From a virus: 64,000 nucleotides of DNA. Shown here piece after piece: positions 12,139 to 33,229 of this stretch; positions within the stretch are counted from its first letter, which is position 1; each line of letters opens with the position of its first letter. Location: IMG/VR virus record IMGVR_UViG_3300027704_003324, positions 32,001-96,000 of that record. The stretch is one strand, 5' to 3'. The translations under genes and the position numbers were made by a program. Below the pieces are notes generated by a model, which was given only the letters and a program-made list of their open reading frames with translations, was not told where the DNA came from and did not search any database.

Positions 12139-12407
12139 TAATATTCTCCGTATAAGTCGAATACCTTAGCTTCCGGAACTTCTTCTTCTACTATAAATTC
12201 TTTAATTGCAAATAGTTTTCCGTTTAATGGCTCTAACCTATAATGTCCTTTAAATTTAGTTTTTCGTAAGTACTGAGTTAATGCTTCTACTAGACCTTCA
12301 ACAACTGTCTCTTTATCTATTACTAGTTCCCAGTTATCTCCAGGAGGAACACGAACTGCAATTAGTTCGTATTCTTCTTCGATCTTTGTTTTGTTATCTT
12401 CAGCCAT
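12138..12407 (-). CDS. hypothetical protein
   Basis: 89 aa, translationally coupled to neighbours. Confidence 0.7.
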   Translation of the reverse strand: MAEDNKTKIEEEYELIAVRVPPGDNWELVIDKETVVEGLVEALTQYLRKTKFKGHYRLEPLNGKLFAIKEFIVEEEVPEAKVFDLYGEY

Positions 12408-13348
12408 TATTGTCTTAATGTTTTCTTAATTCTATAGTCTCTTGAAGTAAAGAATTCAGGTATTAAAGATGAATGGCTAGCTCTAACAGGGTTAATATCT
12501 AAACCTCCTCTACGAGTATACAGACAAGATACCATTAACTGTTCTGGTTCGTATGCGTCTGATAGATGCTTATATACCATTTCGCAAATCTCTTCATGAA
12601 AATGACTTACTGTACGGTGAGAAACTATATACTTAGCTAGTGAATCAGCAGATGGTAATTTCTTACCTACCATTTTAATAAATACATCTCCCCAATCAGG
12701 TTGATTAGTAACTCTACAATTAGATCTAAGTAAGTTAGATTTTAATTTAACCTCTTTAGCTACATCTGATGTATCTTCTACTGCTAATTGAGTAGCATCA
12801 GATTGAAACGATGTAAAGTCAATTTGATCTAAATCTACTAATCCTCCTAAGTCTTCGTAACCTTCAAAAGATAGTTCTAATCCTTCTTCTTCACTTGCAA
12901 AGAAAGTAACAATTGTATTAGTTTCTAAAAGTTCATCTAAGTCTCTTTTAACAGTAGCTTCTATTCCAGTAATACAGTCCATAGCATTATCAGCTATTCT
13001 AGTCATATTGAAAGAATTCAAATATAACTTAATAGATTTAGACTCTACGTGAAATTCAGAATCAGAAGGGCATGTAATTTTAAGGAGTCCTGCTACTGGT
13101 TGACCTTTAGTCGTAATAGCAGATACTTCATAACAGTTCCATGTATCAACTCCTACAAAACTATCTGATGTTAGGTCGTAGCCTTCTCTATTTAAGTATC
13201 TAGGGATTTTAACTAATAGCTCTCTATTATACTGGTCAGAGTATCCATCTCCACCAACTTTACCTAAGTGCTTTCCAGCAATTGCTACTACTTCGTCGTA
13301 ATTTTTTACTTTTTCCATTTTATTTATTTTATTATATAATCTATCCAC
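12407..13348 (-). CDS. queF: NADPH-dependent 7-cyano-7-deazaguanine (preQ0) reductase, bimodular type; start probably MEKVK near 13318
   Basis: VESKSIKLYLNSF, LLRSNCRVTNQPDWG with catalytic Cys, FHEEICE, YTRRGGLDINP. Confidence 0.93.
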   Translation of the reverse strand: MDRLYNKINKMEKVKNYDEVVAIAGKHLGKVGGDGYSDQYNRELLVKIPRYLNREGYDLTSDSFVGVDTWNCYEVSAITTKGQPVAGLLKITCPSDSEFHVESKSIKLYLNSFNMTRIADNAMDCITGIEATVKRDLDELLETNTIVTFFASEEEGLELSFEGYEDLGGLVDLDQIDFTSFQSDATQLAVEDTSDVAKEVKLKSNLLRSNCRVTNQPDWGDVFIKMVGKKLPSADSLAKYIVSHRTVSHFHEEICEMVYKHLSDAYEPEQLMVSCLYTRRGGLDINPVRASHSSLIPEFFTSRDYRIKKTLRQ

Positions 13349-14507: not shown

Positions 14508-15050
14508 CTACACACCTGCTTTTCTTAAAAAATGAATCCATAAGTATTCAGATCTCTGCTGTAATGCTTTAAACATTTCGTCCTTAGTAATACGCCAAGC
14601 ATTAAATCTTTCCTCTGATATTATTTTACCTTCATCTACTCCTGCAGTTACCTTATGTAATACACATCCCATAACATCATGTTTAGCTTCATAAGCTCTA
14701 ATTTGAGGGTCTTTACCTTTTAATTCTGGGTACTCAGTAATAAGGCCTGGATGACCGTTATAAATTCCATGCTTTTCGCATATTGATGGAGGAACTACTC
14801 TTAACCATCCGTGTAAAGTAATTAAACTATCTGGAAAGTATACAAGTAGGTCTTCATACTCTTCTAAGGTAGGTTTATTACTCATAGTGAAATAACCTTT
14901 CTTTTCTATTCTAGAATCTATTGTTCTAAGGTGTTCAGGTCTATCATTAGTAATTATCCTATCAGGCCAGCGTCCTAAGCTTTCCGCTAAGTTAGCTATT
15001 TCAGAACCTGTTTGACTAAAAAACGCTATCCAAGTATTTGATTCACTCAT
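14508..15050 (-). CDS. PurN-like formyltransferase (candidate DpdN, preQ1 formyltransferase)
   Basis: FSQTGS, LHGWLRVVP, YNGHPG, GCVLHKVTAGVDEG; context of que genes. Confidence 0.8.
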   Translation of the reverse strand: MSESNTWIAFFSQTGSEIANLAESLGRWPDRIITNDRPEHLRTIDSRIEKKGYFTMSNKPTLEEYEDLLVYFPDSLITLHGWLRVVPPSICEKHGIYNGHPGLITEYPELKGKDPQIRAYEAKHDVMGCVLHKVTAGVDEGKIISEERFNAWRITKDEMFKALQQRSEYLWIHFLRKAGV

Positions 15051-15726
15051 TTAATGTTGTTGATTTAATTCTAATATTTTCTATCTGTATAGGTTTTATA
15101 CCTCTAAGTTTAAAACTCAAACCTAATGCAAGACCTGGTCCATTACCTTTACCGCTAAAACTATTATCTTCAGATCCTATTTCAATCCATAGTTTTTCAG
15201 CTAAAGTTAAGTCTAAAACTATACCCTTAAGATACGAATTATAAGGCAGTATTCCAACTTGTTCTAGTACTGGTGTTACTTCAGTTGGGTCTACTCCTAA
15301 AGATTCCATATACTTTACTGCTTTGCTCCAGTATGCCTTTGTATACCAAGATCCTTTCCAACCACTTTGTACATAAAAATTATCGTCTGGTGGTATATGT
15401 GATGCTTTTACAGCATCTTTAAGTTTATCAGCGTCTGCATAAATAACTTGTTGTTTAATACATTGTGATATGAATATTGGCCAATAGTACTGTTCGAAAT
15501 AATTAAAAACTCCTTTGTTTGTCGGAGCCATATTAAAGATATTATAACCCTCTACTTCTATGTGAACATCGGTTTGAAGATATATAGTTGACTTCTTATC
15601 AATATATTTTATATTATTTAAAAAATCTTTTCTATGTTCATCTCCTATTGCTATGATACAATAATTAGCCATTTGTAAACCATTTAAATTTTTGTATATT
15701 ATTTTTAATAGTATCCAACTGCTCAA
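15043..15726 (-). CDS. hypothetical protein (start probably MANYC near 15672)
   Basis: ORF inside the operon; YADAD DxD-like motif. Confidence 0.55.
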   Translation of the reverse strand: MSSWILLKIIYKNLNGLQMANYCIIAIGDEHRKDFLNNIKYIDKKSTIYLQTDVHIEVEGYNIFNMAPTNKGVFNYFEQYYWPIFISQCIKQQVIYADADKLKDAVKASHIPPDDNFYVQSGWKGSWYTKAYWSKAVKYMESLGVDPTEVTPVLEQVGILPYNSYLKGIVLDLTLAEKLWIEIGSEDNSFSGKGNGPGLALGLSFKLRGIKPIQIENIRIKSTTLNE

Positions 15727-16462
15727 TTGTGAGCTCTGAGTTAATTAGTTCATGAAGTTTCTGACGCTCTTTAGACCATAGTCCATCGGTTCCGTATGTA
15801 ATTCCTTTAATTCCATGTACTACAGGATTTGAAGTATCTAATGAGTAGATCCAATCATAGTCAGAATGCTTATAAAAACTAAACTCTTGAGGAAGTCCAC
15901 ATCCTAATAAGTGATGAGGCTTATCTTTATTAATTACCCCGTCTTTAAGTAAGTCTCCTAGTAGCTTAACACGTCCTAGCATCCAACTAACGTACTTGTT
16001 AGCATGAGGAAAAGAATCGGTGTAATACGAATAATCAAAAGAGATAGCAATCATATCTACATTAGCTATTTCATCCATAGCTTTGTAACATTCTCTGATT
16101 TGCTTATAATTTTTACCTTGAACAACCCCTATACTTTTACCAGGGACATCACTATGGTTTTTAGTCCAATTTGCAGCTTGTTGCATAGTCTTATGAGCAT
16201 CTTCTAAAGCATCCGGAATAATATACCAAGTAGGTCTTATTTCTTTAACCCAATATGCAAATTTATGTGCATCAAACGCTTCTTCTAATTCAAAGATAGA
16301 GTTATCTAAAATAACCTCTCTACCACTAGCTATTGCTTTCTTAAATTGTTCCAAATAAATTGGATCCTCTTCAAAGAGGTGCACTAAGGCATAATCGTAA
16401 TCAGTTAAATACTGTACTTCATCAAAAATACTCTTCGGACTTTCGTGTGCTATTTTAATCAT
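15665..16462 (-). CDS. TGT-fold protein, candidate DpdA3-type deazaguanine insertion enzyme
   Basis: ILDNSIFE, IIPD, GVVQG, HHLLG, SLDTS: the TGT/DpdA TIM-barrel motif series; located among que genes. Confidence 0.7.
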   Translation of the reverse strand: MIKIAHESPKSIFDEVQYLTDYDYALVHLFEEDPIYLEQFKKAIASGREVILDNSIFELEEAFDAHKFAYWVKEIRPTWYIIPDALEDAHKTMQQAANWTKNHSDVPGKSIGVVQGKNYKQIRECYKAMDEIANVDMIAISFDYSYYTDSFPHANKYVSWMLGRVKLLGDLLKDGVINKDKPHHLLGCGLPQEFSFYKHSDYDWIYSLDTSNPVVHGIKGITYGTDGLWSKERQKLHELINSELTIEQLDTIKNNIQKFKWFTNG

Positions 16463-17439: not shown

Positions 17440-17967
17440 TTATTTATTTAATTTATTAGTATTTTCTTTAGGCATTGTTAAACCTCCTATAAGGTTTATG
17501 TCATCTCTTTCGTCCTGTCTTTCATCTGGTTCGTTTGCTAAAAGCTCATTAGCCATTTCTATCCACTCCGGTAGGTCTACTTGTTCTTTATCTAAGACCT
17601 CTTGCATAGTTCCGATCCATTCATCTTCTCTTTTATAATCATCTTCTAATCGTACTATATCATCTTCTCCGAAGTAGGTACCAGTCTGTACTTCTATAAA
17701 TCTTACTGGTTTATCTGTTTCATTCCAAGCTCTATGTTTAGCTCCTAATGGTATTTTAATAGATTCTCCTGCTTTTCTAAATACTTTCTCATCATCAAGT
17801 ATAATAGTTAGTTCACCGTAGATAACAGTCCACTGCTCTTTACGTTTCGTGTGGTACTGGTAAGAGAGTCTTTGTCCGGGTTCAACTTCTATAATCTTAA
17901 CTTTAGCTTCTGAGGTATCATGTAATACTTCATATGCACCCCAAGGTCTATATTCTAATGACGACAT
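17440..17967 (-). CDS. mannose-6-phosphate isomerase type II C-terminal cupin
   Basis: RPWG, PGQRLSYQYH..R.E.W, IEVQTGTYFGEDDIVRLEDDY. Confidence 0.88.
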   Translation of the reverse strand: MSSLEYRPWGAYEVLHDTSEAKVKIIEVEPGQRLSYQYHTKRKEQWTVIYGELTIILDDEKVFRKAGESIKIPLGAKHRAWNETDKPVRFIEVQTGTYFGEDDIVRLEDDYKREDEWIGTMQEVLDKEQVDLPEWIEMANELLANEPDERQDERDDINLIGGLTMPKENTNKLNK

Positions 17968-18668
17968 ATGCTTGCTAATTCTATATTCTTATAAAACTCT
18001 GCTTTTGCAGAATCCTCATTTAAAAATGCTCCTGTTAACTTAGCAGTCTGCATTGAAGCTCCTTGATGCTTCACTCCTCTACAACTTACACAATTATGTG
18101 TTGCAGATATCATAACTGCTACTCCTAAATTACCTTCACATATCTTATTAACAGCATTATGAATAGCAACTGTTAATTGTTCTTGAATAGCACCTCTTCT
18201 TCCGAATTGCTCTACTATTCTATTTAATTTAGATAAGCCGACAACCTTCCCGGTCTCTGAAGCTATATAAGCTATGCTCACTTGTCCACCAATATTTTGG
18301 TGGTGGTGGGAGCACATAGACGTAACTGGAATATTAGATTCTTGTACGATTCCGTCGTAGCCGTCGCTAGGGAATGCCGTAATTCTGTCTAATGGCTCAT
18401 ATCGGCCCTTCCATAAATCGTTAACGTATGCTTTCGCTACTCTACGGGGAGTCTCAGAAGAGTTCGGATCATTTTTCCAATCCGTACCAAGAGCAGTCAA
18501 GAAGTCTCCAAATGCTTTTTCAGCATTATTAATGATAACTTCCTTCTCTTCTGATGTTAATCTAGCCTCAGGTCCGTCGGTTGCCTGCTTATCTGCTAGT
18601 TGAATGGATATACCGTTTGCATATCCAGCTTTTACTAATTCTGTTCCTTCTATAAACTTCTTTGCCAT
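17955..18668 (-). CDS. folE: GTP cyclohydrolase I (start taken as MAKKF at 18668)
   Basis: ETPRRVAKAY, SMCSHH, VGLSKLNR, IQEQLT, HNCVSCRGV. Confidence 0.95.
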   Translation of the reverse strand: MAKKFIEGTELVKAGYANGISIQLADKQATDGPEARLTSEEKEVIINNAEKAFGDFLTALGTDWKNDPNSSETPRRVAKAYVNDLWKGRYEPLDRITAFPSDGYDGIVQESNIPVTSMCSHHHQNIGGQVSIAYIASETGKVVGLSKLNRIVEQFGRRGAIQEQLTVAIHNAVNKICEGNLGVAVMISATHNCVSCRGVKHQGASMQTAKLTGAFLNEDSAKAEFYKNIELASICRH

Positions 18669-18678
18669 TTTCTCTTTA

Positions 18679-18705
18679 CTTGTTTTGTAGTGGTGCTTCA
18701 ACACT
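18679..18705 (-). promoter_or_regulatory. preQ1-I-like riboswitch aptamer in the folE leader
   Basis: AGUG-UUGAAGCAC-CACU-ACAAAACAAG between the promoter (18716-18725) and the ATG. Confidence 0.6.
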
Positions 18706-18734
18706 TATTAATACTTTAATATACGATTTTATTT

Positions 18735-19142
18735 TCATTTAACCAAATAATCTTGTATAGGATTTGAATTATCTTTTTCCCATGGATAAACTATCCACCC
18801 ATAATCATCTGCTATTTCTTGTGCATAGTACTCTGGTTTTGCTACTGATGTTGTCTTATAGTGAAGAGTAGCAAATTTAGGGTTAAACATAGTACCTCTT
18901 AAATCAAAGATTGTTTTACCGCTATCTGCTATATCATCTATAATCAATAGCTTAGGATAGTGGTTACTTGTGTACTGCATATAAGGTACTTCAAACCTAT
19001 GTGAGTACATTATTGCTAAAATGGTGCCTCCTCTTGGTATTCCAGTAACGTAGTCTATACTACCTTTACATTGTTCGTGTACTTTATCTAATAGTTCATA
19101 GACATCATCCCAAGTTAAGAATATTTTTTTTATTTCTCCCAT
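18735..19142 (-). CDS. type I phosphoribosyltransferase (Gpt-like)
   Basis: GIPRGG, LIIDDIADSGKT, WIVYPWE. Confidence 0.88.
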   Translation of the reverse strand: MGEIKKIFLTWDDVYELLDKVHEQCKGSIDYVTGIPRGGTILAIMYSHRFEVPYMQYTSNHYPKLLIIDDIADSGKTIFDLRGTMFNPKFATLHYKTTSVAKPEYYAQEIADDYGWIVYPWEKDNSNPIQDYLVK

Positions 19143-19270
19143 GTTGTTGTTGTTGTCCATATCGTAGGATCTATTACGTAGTTAAGTTCTTTCTCAAAGT
19201 TTAATTCTCTTACTTTTTTGCCTAATTCTTGATCATTAGGTGTGTCGTGTATTATTTGTTTAAGGTTCAT
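19130..19270 (-). CDS. small hypothetical protein (46 aa), not in the ORF track
   Basis: [27 protein letters not shown]..., overlapping both neighbours. Confidence 0.55.
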
Positions 19271-19571
19271 ATTTTAATCCAAAAAATTTATAATTATTTA
19301 TAACTGCTTCTTTTTCTCCGTCGGCGATTGCATCTTCTTCTGTTTCGTATATTGCGTCTACTGGGCATTCTGGTATACAGGCTCCACAATCAATACATTC
19401 GTCTGGGTTGATATAAAGGCTTTTGCCTATTAGTTGTGATTTGGTCATTTCTGCAACTTCTGCTCCTGCTCCTGTTATATCTATAGGACCATGTATACAG
19501 TCTACAGGGCAAACTGTTACGCAAGCTGTATCGCAGGTACTAATGCACGGACTTCCTATTATATAACTCAT
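19260..19571 (-). CDS. 4Fe-4S dicluster ferredoxin
   Basis: [17 protein letters not shown] and [16 protein letters not shown]. Confidence 0.93.
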
Positions 19572-20350
19572 TATACTTCTCTTTGATCTTCAAATGCAAT
19601 GATATGGGGTCTCCAAGTCATTCTATACCCATTATCTCTAACCCAATCAAACAATACAGGGTAAGACTTAAATAGAGATTCTCTTGAGTCTCCTGCAGGC
19701 ATAAACCATACTTTATCTTGAGGTGCTTCTAAAGTATCTATACATTCCATTATTTCTTTTAATGCTGCTTTATCTTTACCATCCCATACCGGCTTTAAGT
19801 GGTAGTTAGAATGGTATGCAATACTTTTTTTCATTGCTTCATAATTAAGTCTAAACTTATTATGTTGTTTAATCATCCTTTCATCAGTAATCTTACCTTG
19901 TGGTGTTGCCACTCCAAGTACAGGTACCGAGTTAGAGAATTTGGGACTGATAGAAAGCAAATTGATAGGATAATCCGTAGGTAGAAAATGACTACCTTCG
20001 TTCTCCATAGTAATAAAAATATCTTTTTCATTAGCAAAATGTGTTAATTCATTAACTAGTTTTCCATGCATTGAAGGTGATCCTCCAGTAAGCATCATTT
20101 CTTTAATATGAGGATTCTTCTCATATGCTTTAATTATATCATTAAAGTTATATTGACCTTTATCTGGATGAATAGATGTATACCAGCTATCACACCAGCC
20201 TCCTTCTCCAAAATAACATCTATGAGTACATCCTGTAGTTCTAATCACTACCGTTGGATAACCTGCTCTACTACCTTCTGACTGTACCGCTGTATATATT
20301 TCTACAATCGGTAAATTTTTATCGTAATCTTCTACTCTACCTAGGGACAT
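19571..20350 (-). CDS. queE: 7-carboxy-7-deazaguanine synthase (radical SAM)
   Basis: [14 protein letters not shown]...WCDS, LTGG, SISPK. Confidence 0.9.
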
Positions 20351-20804
20351 ATATTGCTGAGTTTTTACCGTGTTCTCTAAATTCTACTTTTATAACTTTT
20401 ACTCTACCTTCAGTTTCCGTTTCTATGAATGGAGCTAACTTTTCGTATATATACTGTGAGAACTTCTCTGCTCCTGTAGCAGGTACTACTCTAACCTGTG
20501 CTATACCTATTTGATTAAGCCTCATTGCTTCAGGTAGAAATGGATCGTCTTCTGCTATTAAGTAGGTATGGTCAAACATATGATCCATCCATACTTTTGG
20601 AGACATTCCATCTATTAAGGTCTTAGCTCTTTTCATTCCTCCGAAATCCCATACCCAGTTTCTTTCATCTAAATCTCCTTCAAACCATAGTTTAAAAGAT
20701 ACTCCATAACCGTGTAGAAATCTACAATGAGTAGTTTCGGCTTTCCATTGTCGAAAGACTGTACTGAATCCATCGAATACTTTTGTTGATTGATATTTTG
20801 CCAT
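20337..20804 (-). CDS. queD: 6-carboxy-5,6,7,8-tetrahydropterin synthase
   Basis: HCRFLHGY, WDFG, FDHT, GAEKF. Confidence 0.9.
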   Translation of the reverse strand: MAKYQSTKVFDGFSTVFRQWKAETTHCRFLHGYGVSFKLWFEGDLDERNWVWDFGGMKRAKTLIDGMSPKVWMDHMFDHTYLIAEDDPFLPEAMRLNQIGIAQVRVVPATGAEKFSQYIYEKLAPFIETETEGRVKVIKVEFREHGKNSAIYVPR

Positions 20805-20812
20805 AATATAAT

Positions 20813-21064
20813 TTAAACTAATTCTTCCCCAATTCCAACTAATTCAGCTAAAAATAATAAAATAAAGCCTAACTCAAATAATCCGAAGAATCCAAAAGCA
20901 CATGCTCCTAGTCGAATTGCGGATTTAATAAAAGATATTTTTTGGTGTAAACTAGGATCGGGTATTTTTTGACCGTTGATCTCTAATGACGGTTTCATAA
21001 CTACTTGCCCTCGATCGTCTCTGTAATAAAGATCATCGTTCAATTTCTCTTGTAACTTTTTCAT
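20813..21064 (-). CDS. small membrane protein heading the queD-queE operon
   Basis: C-terminal hydrophobic hairpin ending GIGEELV. Confidence 0.7.
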   Translation of the reverse strand: MKKLQEKLNDDLYYRDDRGQVVMKPSLEINGQKIPDPSLHQKISFIKSAIRLGACAFGFFGLFELGFILLFLAELVGIGEELV

Positions 21065-21066
21065 TT

Positions 21067-21094
21067 CGTGTTTTTAAAGTGGTACTGTGACACT
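21067..21094 (-). promoter_or_regulatory. preQ1-I-like riboswitch aptamer in the leader of the queD-queE operon
   Basis: AGUG-UCACAGUAC-CACU-UUAAAAACACG, 2 nt before the ATG; close to the T. tengcongensis preQ1-I aptamer as remembered. Confidence 0.7.
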
Positions 21095-21120
21095 ATCGCC
21101 TTATATTAATACAATATACG

Positions 21121-21149
21121 AAAAAAGGAGATAGTAACCAACTATCCCC
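21121..21149 (-). terminator. intrinsic terminator
   Basis: GGGGATAGT-TGGTT-ACTATCTCC followed by TTTTTT on the minus strand. Confidence 0.75.
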
Positions 21150-21171
21150 CCTTAATCTTCTGTATTTTATT

Positions 21172-22870: not shown

Positions 22871-22987
22871 CTAAAAGTTCTTATAATTAAATGGGTCTCT
22901 GTTTTTTAACTCACGAATCTTTTTCTTATACGCTCTTGACGCTTTCCATGTGGTATAGTATTCTTTTATTACTTTAAGTATTCTCAT
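22871..22987 (-). CDS. small protein accompanying the carbamoyltransferase (38 aa), not in the ORF track
   Basis: MRILKVIKEYYTTWKASRAYKKKIRELKNRDPFNYKNF; ATGA overlap with the upstream stop. Confidence 0.65.
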   Translation of the reverse strand: MRILKVIKEYYTTWKASRAYKKKIRELKNRDPFNYKNF

Positions 22988-24654
22988 TTTTTCATTATTA
23001 AATAATTGTTAATAACAAGATAAGGGATATCACTATTAATGAACCTTGTTACAGCTTGTTCTGGTGTTCTAGTTATCGTCTGATCTTTAAGGTTAAACGA
23101 TGTATTTAGTACAACACCATGTCCTGATACTCTTTTTAGTTCCTGTAGTAATAAATAGTACTTTTTGTTCCTTTGTTTAGTAACTGATTGAATCCTAGCT
23201 GTATTATCTATGTGAGTAGCAGAAGGAAATAAGTTTTTAGCAGTCTCTTTTACTTTAACTACTTGATTCATATAAGGGACAGCTTCATTAGCGTCAAAAT
23301 ACTTAAGTACATCCTCATTAAGAACTGATGGAGCAAAAGGTCTAAACCCTTCTCTCTTTTTTATTGTATAGTTTAACTTATCTCTCATTTTAGCATTTGT
23401 TGGGGAAGCTAGTATACTTCTATTACCTAATGCTCTAGCTCCAAATTCCATACGGCCTTGAAACCATGCTACAATATTCTGGTTGTTAATTAGTGAAGCT
23501 GTTCGTTTTAGTAAAACTTCATAATCTAGTTTTAAAAAAGAAACTTTCCCTACGTTGTCCTCTAGTACTCCCTGTATATACTCATCTGTATAATGGTTTC
23601 CTAAATAAGGTGTAATATTGGTATGTTTAGGTCCTAAATAAGCAACTAGACAAGCTCCTATAGCTGATCCAGCATCTGAAGGTGCAAAAGGTATGTGGAT
23701 ATTTTTAAAGTACTTATAAGCTTTATTATTTGCTACTCCATTATATGCACATCCTCCTCCTAAACATAAATTGTCAGAATTACATATTAGTTTAGCTCTT
23801 TCTACTAATTTTAAAAACTCTCTTTCGTAAATATTCTGTAAAGCGCAAGCTAAATCTTTATGTTCTTGAGTAACTGGTTCTTCCGGTAAACGAGGTGCTA
23901 ACTGAAGTAATCCTGCAAGGTGTTTCGTGAACATTATATTATCTGAGTATTCCCAGGTAAAGTATCCTTGGTCTATTTCGAATTTATTAGAAGTTACATT
24001 AATAAATACTTGGTCTAATTTTTCATAGTATGTATTAGGATTTCCATACGGTGATAACCCCATTACTTTGTATTCTCCTTCATTTGGCTTAAACCCTAAA
24101 AAAGCTGTTATAGTTGAATATAACATTCCTAATGAATGTGGGAAGTCTATACTTAATTTCTTATCAATACCTTTTTCATCTCCTTTACTTATAGTAACAG
24201 TTTCAAATTCTCCAACTCCGTCTACTGTTAAAATTGCTGCGTCTTTATAAGGGGAAGTATAAAAAGAAAAAGCAGCGTGAGATAAATGATGATCTATATA
24301 TTTAATTTTACCCTTATATCCGTAGTTTTCTTTTAATAAAGTTTCTGGGTTATTTGCCTTATACTCTTTAAGGAATTTTCTACGTTTAAAAAATGTTCTT
24401 ATTGGCCTTTTTGCAAAAGACTTAAGAACTCTTTGTTTCTTCTTTTCCGGAACTTCATACCAGCATACTTCATTAACTTCTTCCATACTAATGCCAGTAT
24501 CTTTAAGGCACCAATTAATTGAATTTGTGGGAAAACTATAATCATGTTTAATCTCTGTAAATCTTTCTTCTTCTACAGCTGCTACTACTTTTCCGTCTAT
24601 TACTAAACAAGCAGCACTATCATGGTAAAAAGCAGATATTCCTAATTGTATCAT
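22984..24654 (-). CDS. carbamoyltransferase (NodU/CmcH family)
   Basis: YHDSAAC, EEERF, HHLSHA, GEYKVMGL, EFGARALGNRS, FRPFAPS, NTSFN. Confidence 0.95.
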   Translation of the reverse strand: MIQLGISAFYHDSAACLVIDGKVVAAVEEERFTEIKHDYSFPTNSINWCLKDTGISMEEVNEVCWYEVPEKKKQRVLKSFAKRPIRTFFKRRKFLKEYKANNPETLLKENYGYKGKIKYIDHHLSHAAFSFYTSPYKDAAILTVDGVGEFETVTISKGDEKGIDKKLSIDFPHSLGMLYSTITAFLGFKPNEGEYKVMGLSPYGNPNTYYEKLDQVFINVTSNKFEIDQGYFTWEYSDNIMFTKHLAGLLQLAPRLPEEPVTQEHKDLACALQNIYEREFLKLVERAKLICNSDNLCLGGGCAYNGVANNKAYKYFKNIHIPFAPSDAGSAIGACLVAYLGPKHTNITPYLGNHYTDEYIQGVLEDNVGKVSFLKLDYEVLLKRTASLINNQNIVAWFQGRMEFGARALGNRSILASPTNAKMRDKLNYTIKKREGFRPFAPSVLNEDVLKYFDANEAVPYMNQVVKVKETAKNLFPSATHIDNTARIQSVTKQRNKKYYLLLQELKRVSGHGVVLNTSFNLKDQTITRTPEQAVTRFINSDIPYLVINNYLIMKK

Positions 24655-26438: not shown

Positions 26439-26512
26439 TGGAGAATATCGGAGTCGAACCGATGACCTCCTGCGTGCAAGGCAGGCGCTCTAGCCAGCTG
26501 AGCTAATCCCCC
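26439..26512 (-). tRNA. tRNA-Ala(UGC)
   Basis: GGGGGATTAGCTCAGCTGGCTAGAGCGCCTGCCTTGCACGCAGGAGGTCATCGGTTCGACTCCGATATTCTCCA; G3:U70 identity pair; CCA not encoded. Confidence 0.97.
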
Positions 26513-26844: not shown

Positions 26845-27660
26845 TTAATCTCTTCCTTTAATAACGGCTGAATTATGGTCTGAAAGTATAAGCTCTACAT
26901 GCGTTTTCGCAACGTTGTATTCAACTTCTCCACTTTCATCCTCATATTGTACAGGGTCATCCACACCCAACATGATAAATGCTTCAATTCTTTCAACAGA
27001 TGATGCTGATTTATAGTCGCTATTACCGCTAGGATAAGGCTTATAGGAAGTATTAGTACGTTTGTACACTTCATTAAAATCAATTCCCAACTCTTTAACC
27101 AGTTTCTGTCCATCTTTTAATATTCCAAATTTGTCTGTATCTAAGTAAGGAGTAAAATACCCTACTCTTTCTGCATCCCAATTCCCTTCTCGAAATGCTA
27201 AATCATCCGCGTCTCTAAACTCTTGTCTACAGTCCGGATATACTGCATGATCACCTGCGTGAATACCTAAAGCAATATCACAGGTCTCTTCTGCTTTATT
27301 AGCTACTGATAATGCTACAGCTTGTGTAATAGAAGCAAATATCTTATTCCTATTAGGTACTACTGTTTCTTTCATATTATCATTCTCATAATGTCCTTCA
27401 GGTACATCATCTCCTCCTTCAACTAATGCTGAATCTAGAAGGCTTGCAAGTCCGTCTAGTTTAATTTGACGATAATTAACTCTATGACCATTATCAGCTA
27501 GATAATTAATTAAAGATTGAGCCTTTTCTAACTCTACTCTATGCTTTTGACCATAATCAAATGAAATACCAGTTACGGTATCGTACTCTTTTAATGCTCT
27601 TAATAATAATGTGGAACTATCCATTCCACCACTTAATGATACTACTACATGCTTTGCCAT
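26845..27660 (-). CDS. queC: 7-cyano-7-deazaguanine synthase
   Basis: SGGMDS, FDYGQKH, TVVPNRN, YPDCR. Confidence 0.95.
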   Translation of the reverse strand: MAKHVVVSLSGGMDSSTLLLRALKEYDTVTGISFDYGQKHRVELEKAQSLINYLADNGHRVNYRQIKLDGLASLLDSALVEGGDDVPEGHYENDNMKETVVPNRNKIFASITQAVALSVANKAEETCDIALGIHAGDHAVYPDCRQEFRDADDLAFREGNWDAERVGYFTPYLDTDKFGILKDGQKLVKELGIDFNEVYKRTNTSYKPYPSGNSDYKSASSVERIEAFIMLGVDDPVQYEDESGEVEYNVAKTHVELILSDHNSAVIKGRD

Positions 27661-31885: not shown

Positions 31886-33229
31886 TTAGGTTTTGTCGAA
31901 TATTTTTTCCATTTTTTCTTTAGTTAAGCTGTAAATCGGCTTATCGTCGGGAATTAAGTCTGAAGCGTTAGCTTCTCCGTCAAAAGTAATATGACCATTA
32001 TTAGTATCCATTTTAAGATTATAAGTCATACCATCTTGCCCGTATCTGTTCTTCATAACGTGCCATCTACCTGTACCTAGTACTTTATCTTCTTTCATTC
32101 TAGATAAAGAGAAACACATATCCGCTACCATCATCTTATCGTAAGAACCTGCTGCCTTATCTCCTTCAATTACTGAATCTTTAGCTCCCATACGGTTAAC
32201 CTGAGATGGAGTAATGATTGGTATCTTTAATTCTTTTGCTAATCCTTTAGTAGCAATAAATACATCATCAATTTCGTCTTTACGTTCGTTATATTTACCT
32301 TTAGAAGGAGCTCTTAAATAGTCCACATAGTCAATTACTATCATATCTGGTTTATGATCCATATCCATACATTTCTGTACGTGAGATTTTATAGTATTTA
32401 CTGTAGCCCCTTTAGGTGGGTATTCTTTTACTATTAACTTACCTTTTAATCCGTCTACTAGTATTTGAACTTCATCTCTATGTTTATTTACTTCGTCAAT
32501 TGAATGACCAGTAAAATAACAATCAAATCTCTTACCAACATAGTCTTCTCCTAATTCTAAGGTATAGTAGTTAACATTATATCCCATCTTGACTGCATGT
32601 GCTGCCATTGCTACACAAGTCCAACTCTTACCTCCTCCAGGATTACCAAAAACTATTGCTAAATCACCTGGACCGAATCCACCTTGAATACCTGCATTTA
32701 ATTCAGGCCATGGAGTTGGTATAGTAGGTCTATAGTCTTCTCTATAACGAGTTTCTACATCTTTATTATACTCATGACCCATATTCTTATCCATACCTGC
32801 TTTCATGGCTTTTTCGATCTGGTTTCTAATACCATCGAAATCTCCATCTTTTAATAAGTCGGTAGAATTTAAGATTGCGGCTTTCATTTCTTGATTCTTA
32901 CAAAAAGTAGTAAACTCTTCCTGTATATACTCTAGATCATCTTGTGAAGCTTCGTAAGAGTTTCTAAGCTCTTCTTTTAATGCAACTACTAGTACCTCAT
33001 TTTCAACCTTTTGAAGTTCTACTTTAAGAACATCCATTGTAATGTTTGTATGGTAATTGTCAAAGTAACTAATTATTTGACTTATAATCCACTTATGTGA
33101 ATCTGCGTCAAAATATCCTTCTTGAAGGACGTCTCTTACATTAAGTAAGAACGTTTTGTCGGTCAATAAGGATCCTAATACTTTTAATTGGAACCCCTTC
33201 CCGTACTGCTGTAGCGATTTTAATGTCAT
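31886..33229 (-). CDS. DnaB/T4 gp41-like replicative helicase
   Basis: GNPGGGKS, TLEL, IDYVD, SQVNR, KNRYG. Confidence 0.9.
   Translation of the reverse strand: MTLKSLQQYGKGFQLKVLGSLLTDKTFLLNVRDVLQEGYFDADSHKWIISQIISYFDNYHTNITMDVLKVELQKVENEVLVVALKEELRNSYEASQDDLEYIQEEFTTFCKNQEMKAAILNSTDLLKDGDFDGIRNQIEKAMKAGMDKNMGHEYNKDVETRYREDYRPTIPTPWPELNAGIQGGFGPGDLAIVFGNPGGGKSWTCVAMAAHAVKMGYNVNYYTLELGEDYVGKRFDCYFTGHSIDEVNKHRDEVQILVDGLKGKLIVKEYPPKGATVNTIKSHVQKCMDMDHKPDMIVIDYVDYLRAPSKGKYNERKDEIDDVFIATKGLAKELKIPIITPSQVNRMGAKDSVIEGDKAAGSYDKMMVADMCFSLSRMKEDKVLGTGRWHVMKNRYGQDGMTYNLKMDTNNGHITFDGEANASDLIPDDKPIYSLTKEKMEKIFDKT

Follow-up and report, generated by a model that had tools for sequence, protein, structure and literature searches.

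The stretch of 64,000 nt analyzed here (the window), which spans positions 32,001 to 96,000 of the IMG/VR virus record IMGVR_UViG_3300027704_003324, carries on its minus strand two copies of a small RNA element, one in the leader of an operon with queD and queE (element 1), the other in the leader of folE (element 2). Judging from the comparisons described below, the element is likely to be a translational riboswitch that senses a 7-deazaguanine. More specifically, it would be, with similar likelihood, a shrunken, type II-like preQ1-I riboswitch of about 28 nt that turns translation off when free preQ1 or preQ0 accumulates. The phage thereby probably senses and throttles the synthesis of the modified guanine for its own DNA. 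From these data we infer which ligand would be bound, that the RNA would fold as a pseudoknot, in which direction it would switch and where transcription would start.

Positions 21094-21067 of the minus strand read AGUG-UCACAGUAC-CACU-UUAAAAA-CACG and are followed by AA and the AUG at 21064-21062. Candidate aptamer 1, about 28 nt long, consists of a hairpin and an A-rich tail that ends 2 nt from the AUG at 21064, with the terminal G of the proposed loop-tail helix (P2) at position −3 relative to the start codon. The same layout of stem, loop, tail and 2-nt gap had been described in an earlier reading made from the letters of the window (the sequence-only reading) and was reproduced here. That reading had quoted the preQ1-I aptamer of T. 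tengcongensis (Tte), and the Methods of PMC10639078 give the same sequence. The 9-nt loop in the window matches the 10-nt Tte loop, UCGCAGUAAC, in 8 positions, with one G-to-A exchange and one missing A. A generalized descriptor (a 4-nt stem with at least 3 pairs, the loop UYNNAGNAC, an A-run and CA) has two matches in the window, each in a leader of 7-deazaguanine genes, and none in 60 first-order Markov simulations of the window. As the data themselves had shaped this descriptor, independent evidence comes from the recurrence of the element across other phages.

To assess this recurrence, 80 phage loci were fetched by similarity to QueD and 80 by similarity to FolE, that is, by protein and not by motif. 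The element was present in 29 of the 80 QueD loci, either directly before the small open reading frame (ORF) that also follows element 1 or before QueD itself (locus L016), and in 56 of the 80 FolE loci. The same contig may recur across fetches, and the instances reduce to 78 distinct sequences. Two covariance models were built, R1 from an alignment A1 with 75 distinct copies, and the broader R2 from an alignment A2 with 78 distinct copies; element 1 scored 49.1 bits with R1 and 43.4 bits with R2. In all 78 distinct copies the tail ends 1–12 nt before the start codon. The element is conserved nearly to the letter in related uncultured Flavobacterium-type phages, even where the identity of the small protein drops to about 32% and the flanks have diverged. 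A strict pattern matched 118 stretches of IMG/VR. The loci collected at that stage contained 150 instances of it, representing 84 distinct contexts. Each is 4–11 nt before an ATG except for one type (L092/L195), which is located within an ORF and is probably a chance match. Some contigs carry two copies of the element.

The 215 instances of the generalized descriptor show which genes follow. The first downstream gene is the small ORF heading queD in 115 cases, FolE in 77, QueD in 4 and QueE in 3; a lipoprotein-like gene ahead of the small ORF and QueD was found in 6 cases, and truncated or variant forms of these genes, as judged by eye, in 10. One locus (L095) has the order QueC, element, lipoprotein-like gene, small ORF, QueD. 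When R2 was run on five phage genomes of 139–191 kb, it matched only these leaders (7 matches at E <= 0.1). Outside of phages, a pattern allowing both main stems yielded 36 matches in 185,579 bacterial and archaeal genomes. Among these, 34 are unrelated, lie mostly in GC-rich contexts without a start codon and look like chance, and the remaining two are on one phage-like contig of 5.9 kb with both phage copies. This contig (NYWG01000135.1) is binned in a metagenome-assembled genome of Verrucomicrobiales, its copies precede the small ORF and folE, and it is probably phage DNA that was mis-binned. R2 gave two weak matches of about 29 bits in 141 Flavobacteriaceae genomes, which were judged unconvincing. 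Among the sequences searched, the element is thus restricted to phage-type DNA.

Among its refuting conditions, the sequence-only reading had named a stem, loop and tail that are not conserved in the leaders of orthologues. The data clearly contradict this, with covariation in the stem and conservation of the loop and the tail. Over the 78 distinct sequences of A2, 99.4% of the cells of the stem (P1) are paired. The outer pair is AU in 55 sequences, UA in 11, GC in 10 and unpaired in 2; the second is GC in 77 and AU in 1; the third is UA in 65 and AU in 13; and the closing pair is GC in all 78. Three of the four pairs change on both sides, with six fully paired versions (AGUG, GGUG, UGUG, UGAG, GGAG and UAAG). 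The covariation score of P1 is 0.334 versus 0.092 after shuffling (none of 500 shuffles reach it), and slid partners score at most 0.130. The collecting descriptor demanded at least three of the four P1 pairs, the fixed closing G-C and several other positions. The A-rich segment between P1 and the tail (L3) has 5–9 nt and ends in at least four A, and the loop U and the closing pair are invariant in A2, which is partly forced by the descriptor. AC precedes the P1 3′ strand in all 78 sequences, as required by the descriptor; in the FolE leaders fetched by protein, every leader that bears the hairpin has it as well.

For P2, two pairs had been predicted in the sequence-only reading. The pair of the loop G with the tail C is found in all 78 copies, with both bases required by the descriptor, and the pair of the loop C with the terminal G covaries (C-G, U-A/U-G, G-C/G-U). 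Loop position 4 can pair with the base three past the tail C in 61 of the 78 sequences, compared with 50.7 after shuffling (none of 5,000 shuffles reach this value, relatedness being ignored), and seven other P2 registers gave no signal. At this position, a C in the loop is always matched by G (8 of 8 cases) and a G by C or U (5 of 5), whereas a U is mostly matched by A or G. In the A2 alignment, the second P2 pair is UA in 35 rows, UG in 10, CG in 8, GC in 4, AU in 1, GU in 1 and other in 19; since MAFFT placed the differences in L3 length at the end, the tail is wrongly aligned in 12 of the rows.

P1 alone is typically predicted at −0.5 kcal/mol, with a range from +1.6 to −2.4 kcal/mol. The minimum free energy fold of the whole leader is no better than that of shuffled sequences (z 0.17), which fits a ligand-dependent fold and is not evidence for one. 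A stem that is marginal on its own, with pairing that is nevertheless kept by selection, implies stabilization by tertiary contacts or by a ligand. In variants with C at loop position 7 (e.g., L134 and L086), the predictions give an alternative GUGU/GCAC hairpin of 4–5 bp more stability than P1; such a hairpin would mask the putative specificity C and could be a competitor in the ligand-free state. As part of the mechanism this hairpin was rejected, as it is not conserved and is absent from the window copy and from loops containing A.

How do these features compare with known riboswitches? Class I preQ1 aptamers form an H-type pseudoknot in which a C directly 5′ of the P1 3′ strand is the specificity base, preceded by A in type II. 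The U of loop L1 and an A of the A-rich L3 read the other edge of the ligand, the G closing P1 contacts the aminomethyl group, and preQ1 is bound better than preQ0, and preQ0 better than guanine (PMC11625349). All contact bases named in the review are present and invariant in the phage element, among them the loop U, the putative ligand-pairing C and the A-rich tail highlighted in the sequence-only reading. The likeness to the type II aptamers of Tte and of B. subtilis queC includes the hairpin, the A-rich tail and a putative short loop-tail helix, the AC before the P1 3′ strand, the U after the 5′ strand and the closing G-C, as well as the position before queuosine-pathway genes and adjoining the start codon. 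The loop UC-R-Y-A-G and the tail C-A-N-R occur in the same register in Tte, for which we take the P2 pairs to be C9-G33 and G11-C30, and in two bacterial RNAs (L356:1501-1544 and L357:1501-1544, from genomes G293 and G276). These two RNAs precede yhhQ/queT-like genes and have all type II features, with the loop UCGCAG..AC and a tail of an A-run and CAAG; a phage copy (locus L199) has UCGCAGUAC. Differences from type II are that the phage P1 has 4 pairs instead of 5, that the total length is about 28 nt instead of 33–34 nt, that the gap from the P2 G to the specificity C is 2 nt instead of 3–5 nt, that the phage tail has no Shine-Dalgarno sequence, and that DNA-modification genes including folE would be controlled.

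The resemblance to type I is lower. A type I RNA before a yhhQ-like gene of Flavobacteriaceae (L250, 50 bits) has in common with the phage element the overall H-type layout proposed for the latter, the A-rich tail and the presumed host family. However, in type I P1 is followed by UU, and its 3′ strand is preceded by UC (PMC11625349), in contrast to UC (UU in the folE copy of the window) and AC in the phage element. RF00522, the Rfam model of PreQ1, scored above its cut-off in 1 of 121 sampled Flavobacteriaceae genomes, and the phage copy is therefore no simple pick-up from the host.

Several results weigh against the assignment to preQ1-I. The relaxed RF00522 search that had been proposed along with the sequence-only reading gave no match at the site: there was none at E <= 10 with 301 nt or 50 nt around it, none at the site in a search of the whole 139-kb phage record, and none on the folE copy of the Flavobacterium phage immuto. 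Conversely, R2 scored true bacterial preQ1-I sites with only 11.2 and 9.4 bits, and unrelated matches reach 17.0 bits. With its four P1 pairs and 9-nt loop, the element is smaller than the Tte and B. subtilis aptamers given in PMC10639078. The invariance of some positions is partly forced by the collecting patterns, and the shuffle controls take no account of relatedness. P2 comprises only two pairs, a small base for pseudoknot evidence, and the second one is unpaired in 17 of the 78 distinct sequences, among them the folE copy of the window, in which A is opposite G. We know of no solved structure of so small a version binding a ligand. Finally, 24 of the 80 FolE loci lack the element, which indicates that it is dispensable in some relatives. 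The gathering score of RF00522 is 39 bits, and the two bacterial type II RNAs introduced above stay below it (37.5 and 33.0 bits), indicating that the model is weak for the type II subtype. By profile, the element is not a member of RF00522; its features suggest a new variant that would work like type II preQ1-I.

Other Rfam families gave no better candidate. A scan of the window at gathering scores found only tRNA. DUF805 RNA (RF03081), a Bacteroidota motif with a similar arrangement of its first hairpin and UUAAAAAAC tail, has a weak likeness at 21037-21098 on the minus strand, over the hairpin and CACUU-AAAAAC; it was rejected because the match has 13.6 bits (E 6.8) versus a gathering score of 51.1, lacks the second hairpin and is lost in a 50-nt search. 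Weak matches to trpB-motif, rivX and SIB near the site were taken as noise or as the upstream terminator hairpin. The best RF00522 match elsewhere in the phage record (16.2 bits, G000:C1:109927-109968) lies apparently in coding sequence and is attributed to chance.

If the element is a preQ1-I-like riboswitch, its mode of action might be as follows. The RNA would start a few bases past TATATT, just 5′ of the weak 4-bp P1. Free preQ1 that has accumulated, or its precursor preQ0, would pair with the C preceding the P1 3′ strand and stack on the closing G-C, with the final A of the A-run and the U that follows the 5′ strand reading it as well. The A-rich tail would then dock along P1, and its CA(N)R would pair with the loop as P2. 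The resulting H-type pseudoknot would end 1–12 nt before the AUG. Messages of Bacteroidota have no Shine-Dalgarno sequence, and their initiation is governed by the structure of the leader and by adenines upstream (PMC6847099). A compact knot at the ribosome landing site would block initiation at the small ORF-queD-queE, and its twin that at folE, because Bacteroidota ribosomes, which use no Shine-Dalgarno sequence, need an unstructured leader. In this way, the phage would adjust its use of GTP to what is needed by DpdA, the enzyme that exchanges the base into DNA. Control of folE and queD/queE, and not of queC, queF, dpdA and the formyltransferase gene, has the look of end-product feedback on the entry steps; such feedback would make metabolic sense, since each modified base costs one GTP.

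Protein binding to RNA hairpins near the start is the rule in phage translational operators, and the element could be one of them, so that a phage or host protein bound to the hairpin and tail would regulate translation of the 7-deazaguanine genes and the RNA would sense no small molecule. We regard this explanation as unlikely. A covarying short stem, a conserved loop and an adjoining start codon are equally typical of protein-bound operators, the Rfam PreQ1 model is blind to the element, and the weak P1 could be stabilized by a protein as well as by a ligand. What such an operator leaves unexplained are the fixed preQ1 contact bases and the loop-tail covariation in the type II register. Moreover, no candidate regulator gene was found travelling with the element, and the co-transcribed small ORF looks membrane-anchored and belongs to no known family.

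A second alternative, to which we assign a somewhat lower probability than to the protein operator, retains the preQ1-I scaffold and would have it tuned to another guanine-like ligand, namely the formyl-preQ1 base, an earlier intermediate (CDG) or guanine. The specificity C reads the Watson-Crick face that all these bases have in common, and compared with Tte, L356 and L357, L2 is shorter by 1–3 bases, a difference that could alter the shape of the pocket around the 7-substituent. The gene content of the phages bears on this point in both directions. Of the named phages, the closest are the Flavobacterium phages vB_FspM_immuto, whose queD has 77% nucleotide identity and in which all dG is replaced by formyl-preQ1 (bioRxiv 10.1101/2023.04.13.536721); the same preprint describes the role of the formyltransferase in immuto and leaves open whether the enzyme acts on the free base or on DNA. 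QueF, the PF00551 formyltransferase, the DpdA-like protein and QueC of the window are the set that immuto uses for formyl-preQ1. A DpdN-like formyltransferase carried by these phages speaks for a formylated ligand. On the other hand, QueF and the PF00551 formyltransferase are both encoded in 5 of 5 complete or near-complete genomes carrying the element, so that preQ1 is made there and preQ1 or preQ0 are the likeliest ligands. In addition, the G closing P1, which contacts the aminomethyl group, is invariant in 78 of 78 copies, partly forced by the descriptor.

A DNA operator, that is, an inverted repeat AGTG..CACT downstream of the promoter that is bound by a transcription factor, is very improbable. 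The short inverted repeat does lie 12–18 nt past TATATT, where repressors often bind. However, the half-sites vary and yet stay complementary (the six stem versions), which indicates pairing in RNA and not a fixed protein half-site; the conserved loop, the A-run and the C are asymmetric; and the distance to the start codon is kept at 1–12 nt while that to the promoter varies. Chance resemblance without function, for which it can be said that small motifs arise easily and that nearly all of the pattern matches in bacterial genomes look like chance, is for practical purposes refuted by the comparative data, as far more than a hundred phage contigs have the element in orthologous leaders, with compensatory changes, and it was absent from the simulated windows.

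The sequence-only reading placed the element before the queD-queE operon, which is borne out, and overlooked the second copy at 18705-18679 before folE, whose product catalyzes the opening step of the pathway. Element 2 scores 13.9 bits with R1 (match 18712-18672) and 30.1 bits with R2 (E 8e-4), and its loop variant recurs in another locus (L306) with a G-C outer pair. The start of folE is the AUG at 18668, and not the GTG at 18704 of the ORF list, which lies inside element 2, as shown by the leader and by the N-terminus MAKKFIEG, which relatives have as well. With R1, folE-leader copies were found in other loci including that of the cultured phage immuto, with the stems GGAG/CUCC and UGAG/CUCA. 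The 24 FolE leaders lacking the element contain no diverged copies, the best R2 score being 11.9 bits. Among them are close relatives (FolE 90% identical) with a plain A/U-rich leader, as in the folE leader of genome G125 (locus L271). Upstream of the small ORF, the same phage retains its copy, and the twin is thus gained or lost independently.

To our knowledge, nearly all riboswitches described so far serve housekeeping control in bacteria. The sequence-only reading knew of no description of a riboswitch in a phage 7-deazaguanine cluster, and in open-access papers and bioRxiv we found none either. The terms "riboswitch" and "regulat" do not occur in the accessible part of bioRxiv 10.1101/2023.04.13.536721, nor does "phage" in that of the review PMC11625349, and the que cluster of Streptococcus phage Dp-1 has no Rfam preQ1 match at E <= 0.1. 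If the proposed function is correct, a virus would regulate the chemistry of its own DNA by a riboswitch, and regulation would be added to a pathway that has so far been described only enzymatically. With 28 nt, the element would also lower the minimum size of natural aptamers and exemplify riboswitch action without a Shine-Dalgarno sequence. The Rfam model appears to miss short type II-like variants, and the RNA is small enough for direct synthesis. A bolder version, which is speculative and taken as a whole rather doubtful, is that the element represents the smallest natural aptamer (about 28 nt) and a phage-only class that re-uses the preQ1-I pocket, maybe with preQ1 bound less well than preQ0 or the formylated base. 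By folding the A-rich leader itself, it would control translation in Bacteroidota without a Shine-Dalgarno sequence, as a viral regulon of two copies that meters GTP into DNA hypermodification.

The features of the region are listed in Table 1. The terminator-like hairpin upstream of element 1 was not called by a simple terminator scan and was revealed by folding; it indicates that the queD operon is a separate transcription unit. Between TTCGTATATT (21122-21113) and the AGUG of element 1 there are 18 nt. The same promoter-like pair lies upstream of the element in related phages, and AGTTGG/TATATT presumably resembles the −33/−7 promoter type of Bacteroidota. The motif TTCKTATATT occurs 12 times in the window, compared with 1.56 expected, at sites that span 106-61377 (e.g., 28512-28503, 36255-36246 and 50540-50531 on the minus strand). 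It is usually accompanied by (A)GTTG(G/C) about 19 nt upstream and precedes short A/U-rich leaders of many genes. This is probably the main promoter type of the phage. Among the leaders behind this motif in the window, only the two before 7-deazaguanine genes contain the element. Neither inspection of the sequence nor the simple terminator scan found a terminator between element 1 and its gene.

Table 1. Coordinates of the two elements, their promoter-like signals and the genes of the 7-deazaguanine region in the window.
Feature	Position	Strand	Details
Terminator-like hairpin + U6, ending the upstream gene of 557 amino acids (aa)	21121..21151	minus	−17.8 kcal/mol; z −4.66; equaled by none of 200 shuffles
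Promoter-like pair	21113..21143	minus	AGTTGG (21143-21138), 19 nt, TATATT within TTCGTATATT (21122-21113)
Aptamer candidate 1	21067..21094	minus	P1 = 21094-21091 with 21081-21078; loop UCACAGUAC 21090-21082
Aptamer candidate 1, 3′ parts	21067..21077	minus	A-rich L3 UUAAAAA 21077-21071; tail CACG 21070-21067
Aptamer candidate 1, proposed P2 pairs		minus	G21085-C21070, C21087-G21067
Aptamer candidate 1, proposed ligand contacts		minus	C21082, U21090, A21071, closing pair G21091-C21081
83-aa ORF, first gene after element 1	20813..21064	minus	Hydrophobic C-terminus; relatives in 44 of 80 QueD loci
queD	20337..20804	minus	6-pyruvoyl-tetrahydropterin synthase family; PF01242, E 5.4e-14
queE-like radical SAM enzyme	19571..20350	minus	PF04055, 22.3 bits, below cut-off; position where the immuto record annotates QueE
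Second promoter-like motif, before folE	18718..18727	minus	ATCGTATATT
Aptamer candidate 2, diverged twin	18679..18705	minus	AGUG-UUGAAGCAC-CACU-ACAAAA-CAAG; 10 nt before folE AUG
folE (GTP cyclohydrolase I)	17955..18668	minus	PF01227, E 1.5e-43
DpdA-like DNA guanine transglycosylase	15665..16462	minus	74.3% identical to the protein so annotated in the immuto record
Formyltransferase, DpdN-like	14508..15050	minus	PF00551
queF (preQ0 to preQ1 reductase)	12407..13348	minus	PF14819 + PF14489; element absent from its leader
queC (matched part)	26974..27648	minus	PF06508, 132.5 bits; no R2 match before it

Control of a queD-queE operon, as claimed in the sequence-only reading, agrees with the presence of both genes downstream of element 1; the first gene, however, is the 83-aa ORF and not queD. 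The order after the element is 83-aa ORF, QueD, QueE-like radical SAM enzyme, 4Fe-4S protein and phosphoribosyltransferase-domain protein. The 83-aa ORF matched no Pfam or PHROG family, and an Atlas search gave viral hypothetical clusters only. It belongs to a phage-only family of 61–107 aa that is nearly always found between the element and queD and has a conserved C-terminus (..PDPKLHQ..SFIKS..R.., a hydrophobic stretch and ..EELV). Further minus-strand genes are interleaved with the 7-deazaguanine genes, i.e., those for a cupin/mannose-6-phosphate-isomerase-like protein (17440-17967), the phosphoribosyltransferase-domain protein (18735-19160), the 4Fe-4S protein (19260-19571) and a carbamoyltransferase (22984-24654). 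Directly downstream of queC lies a tRNA gene (26439-26512, minus strand, 66.8 bits).

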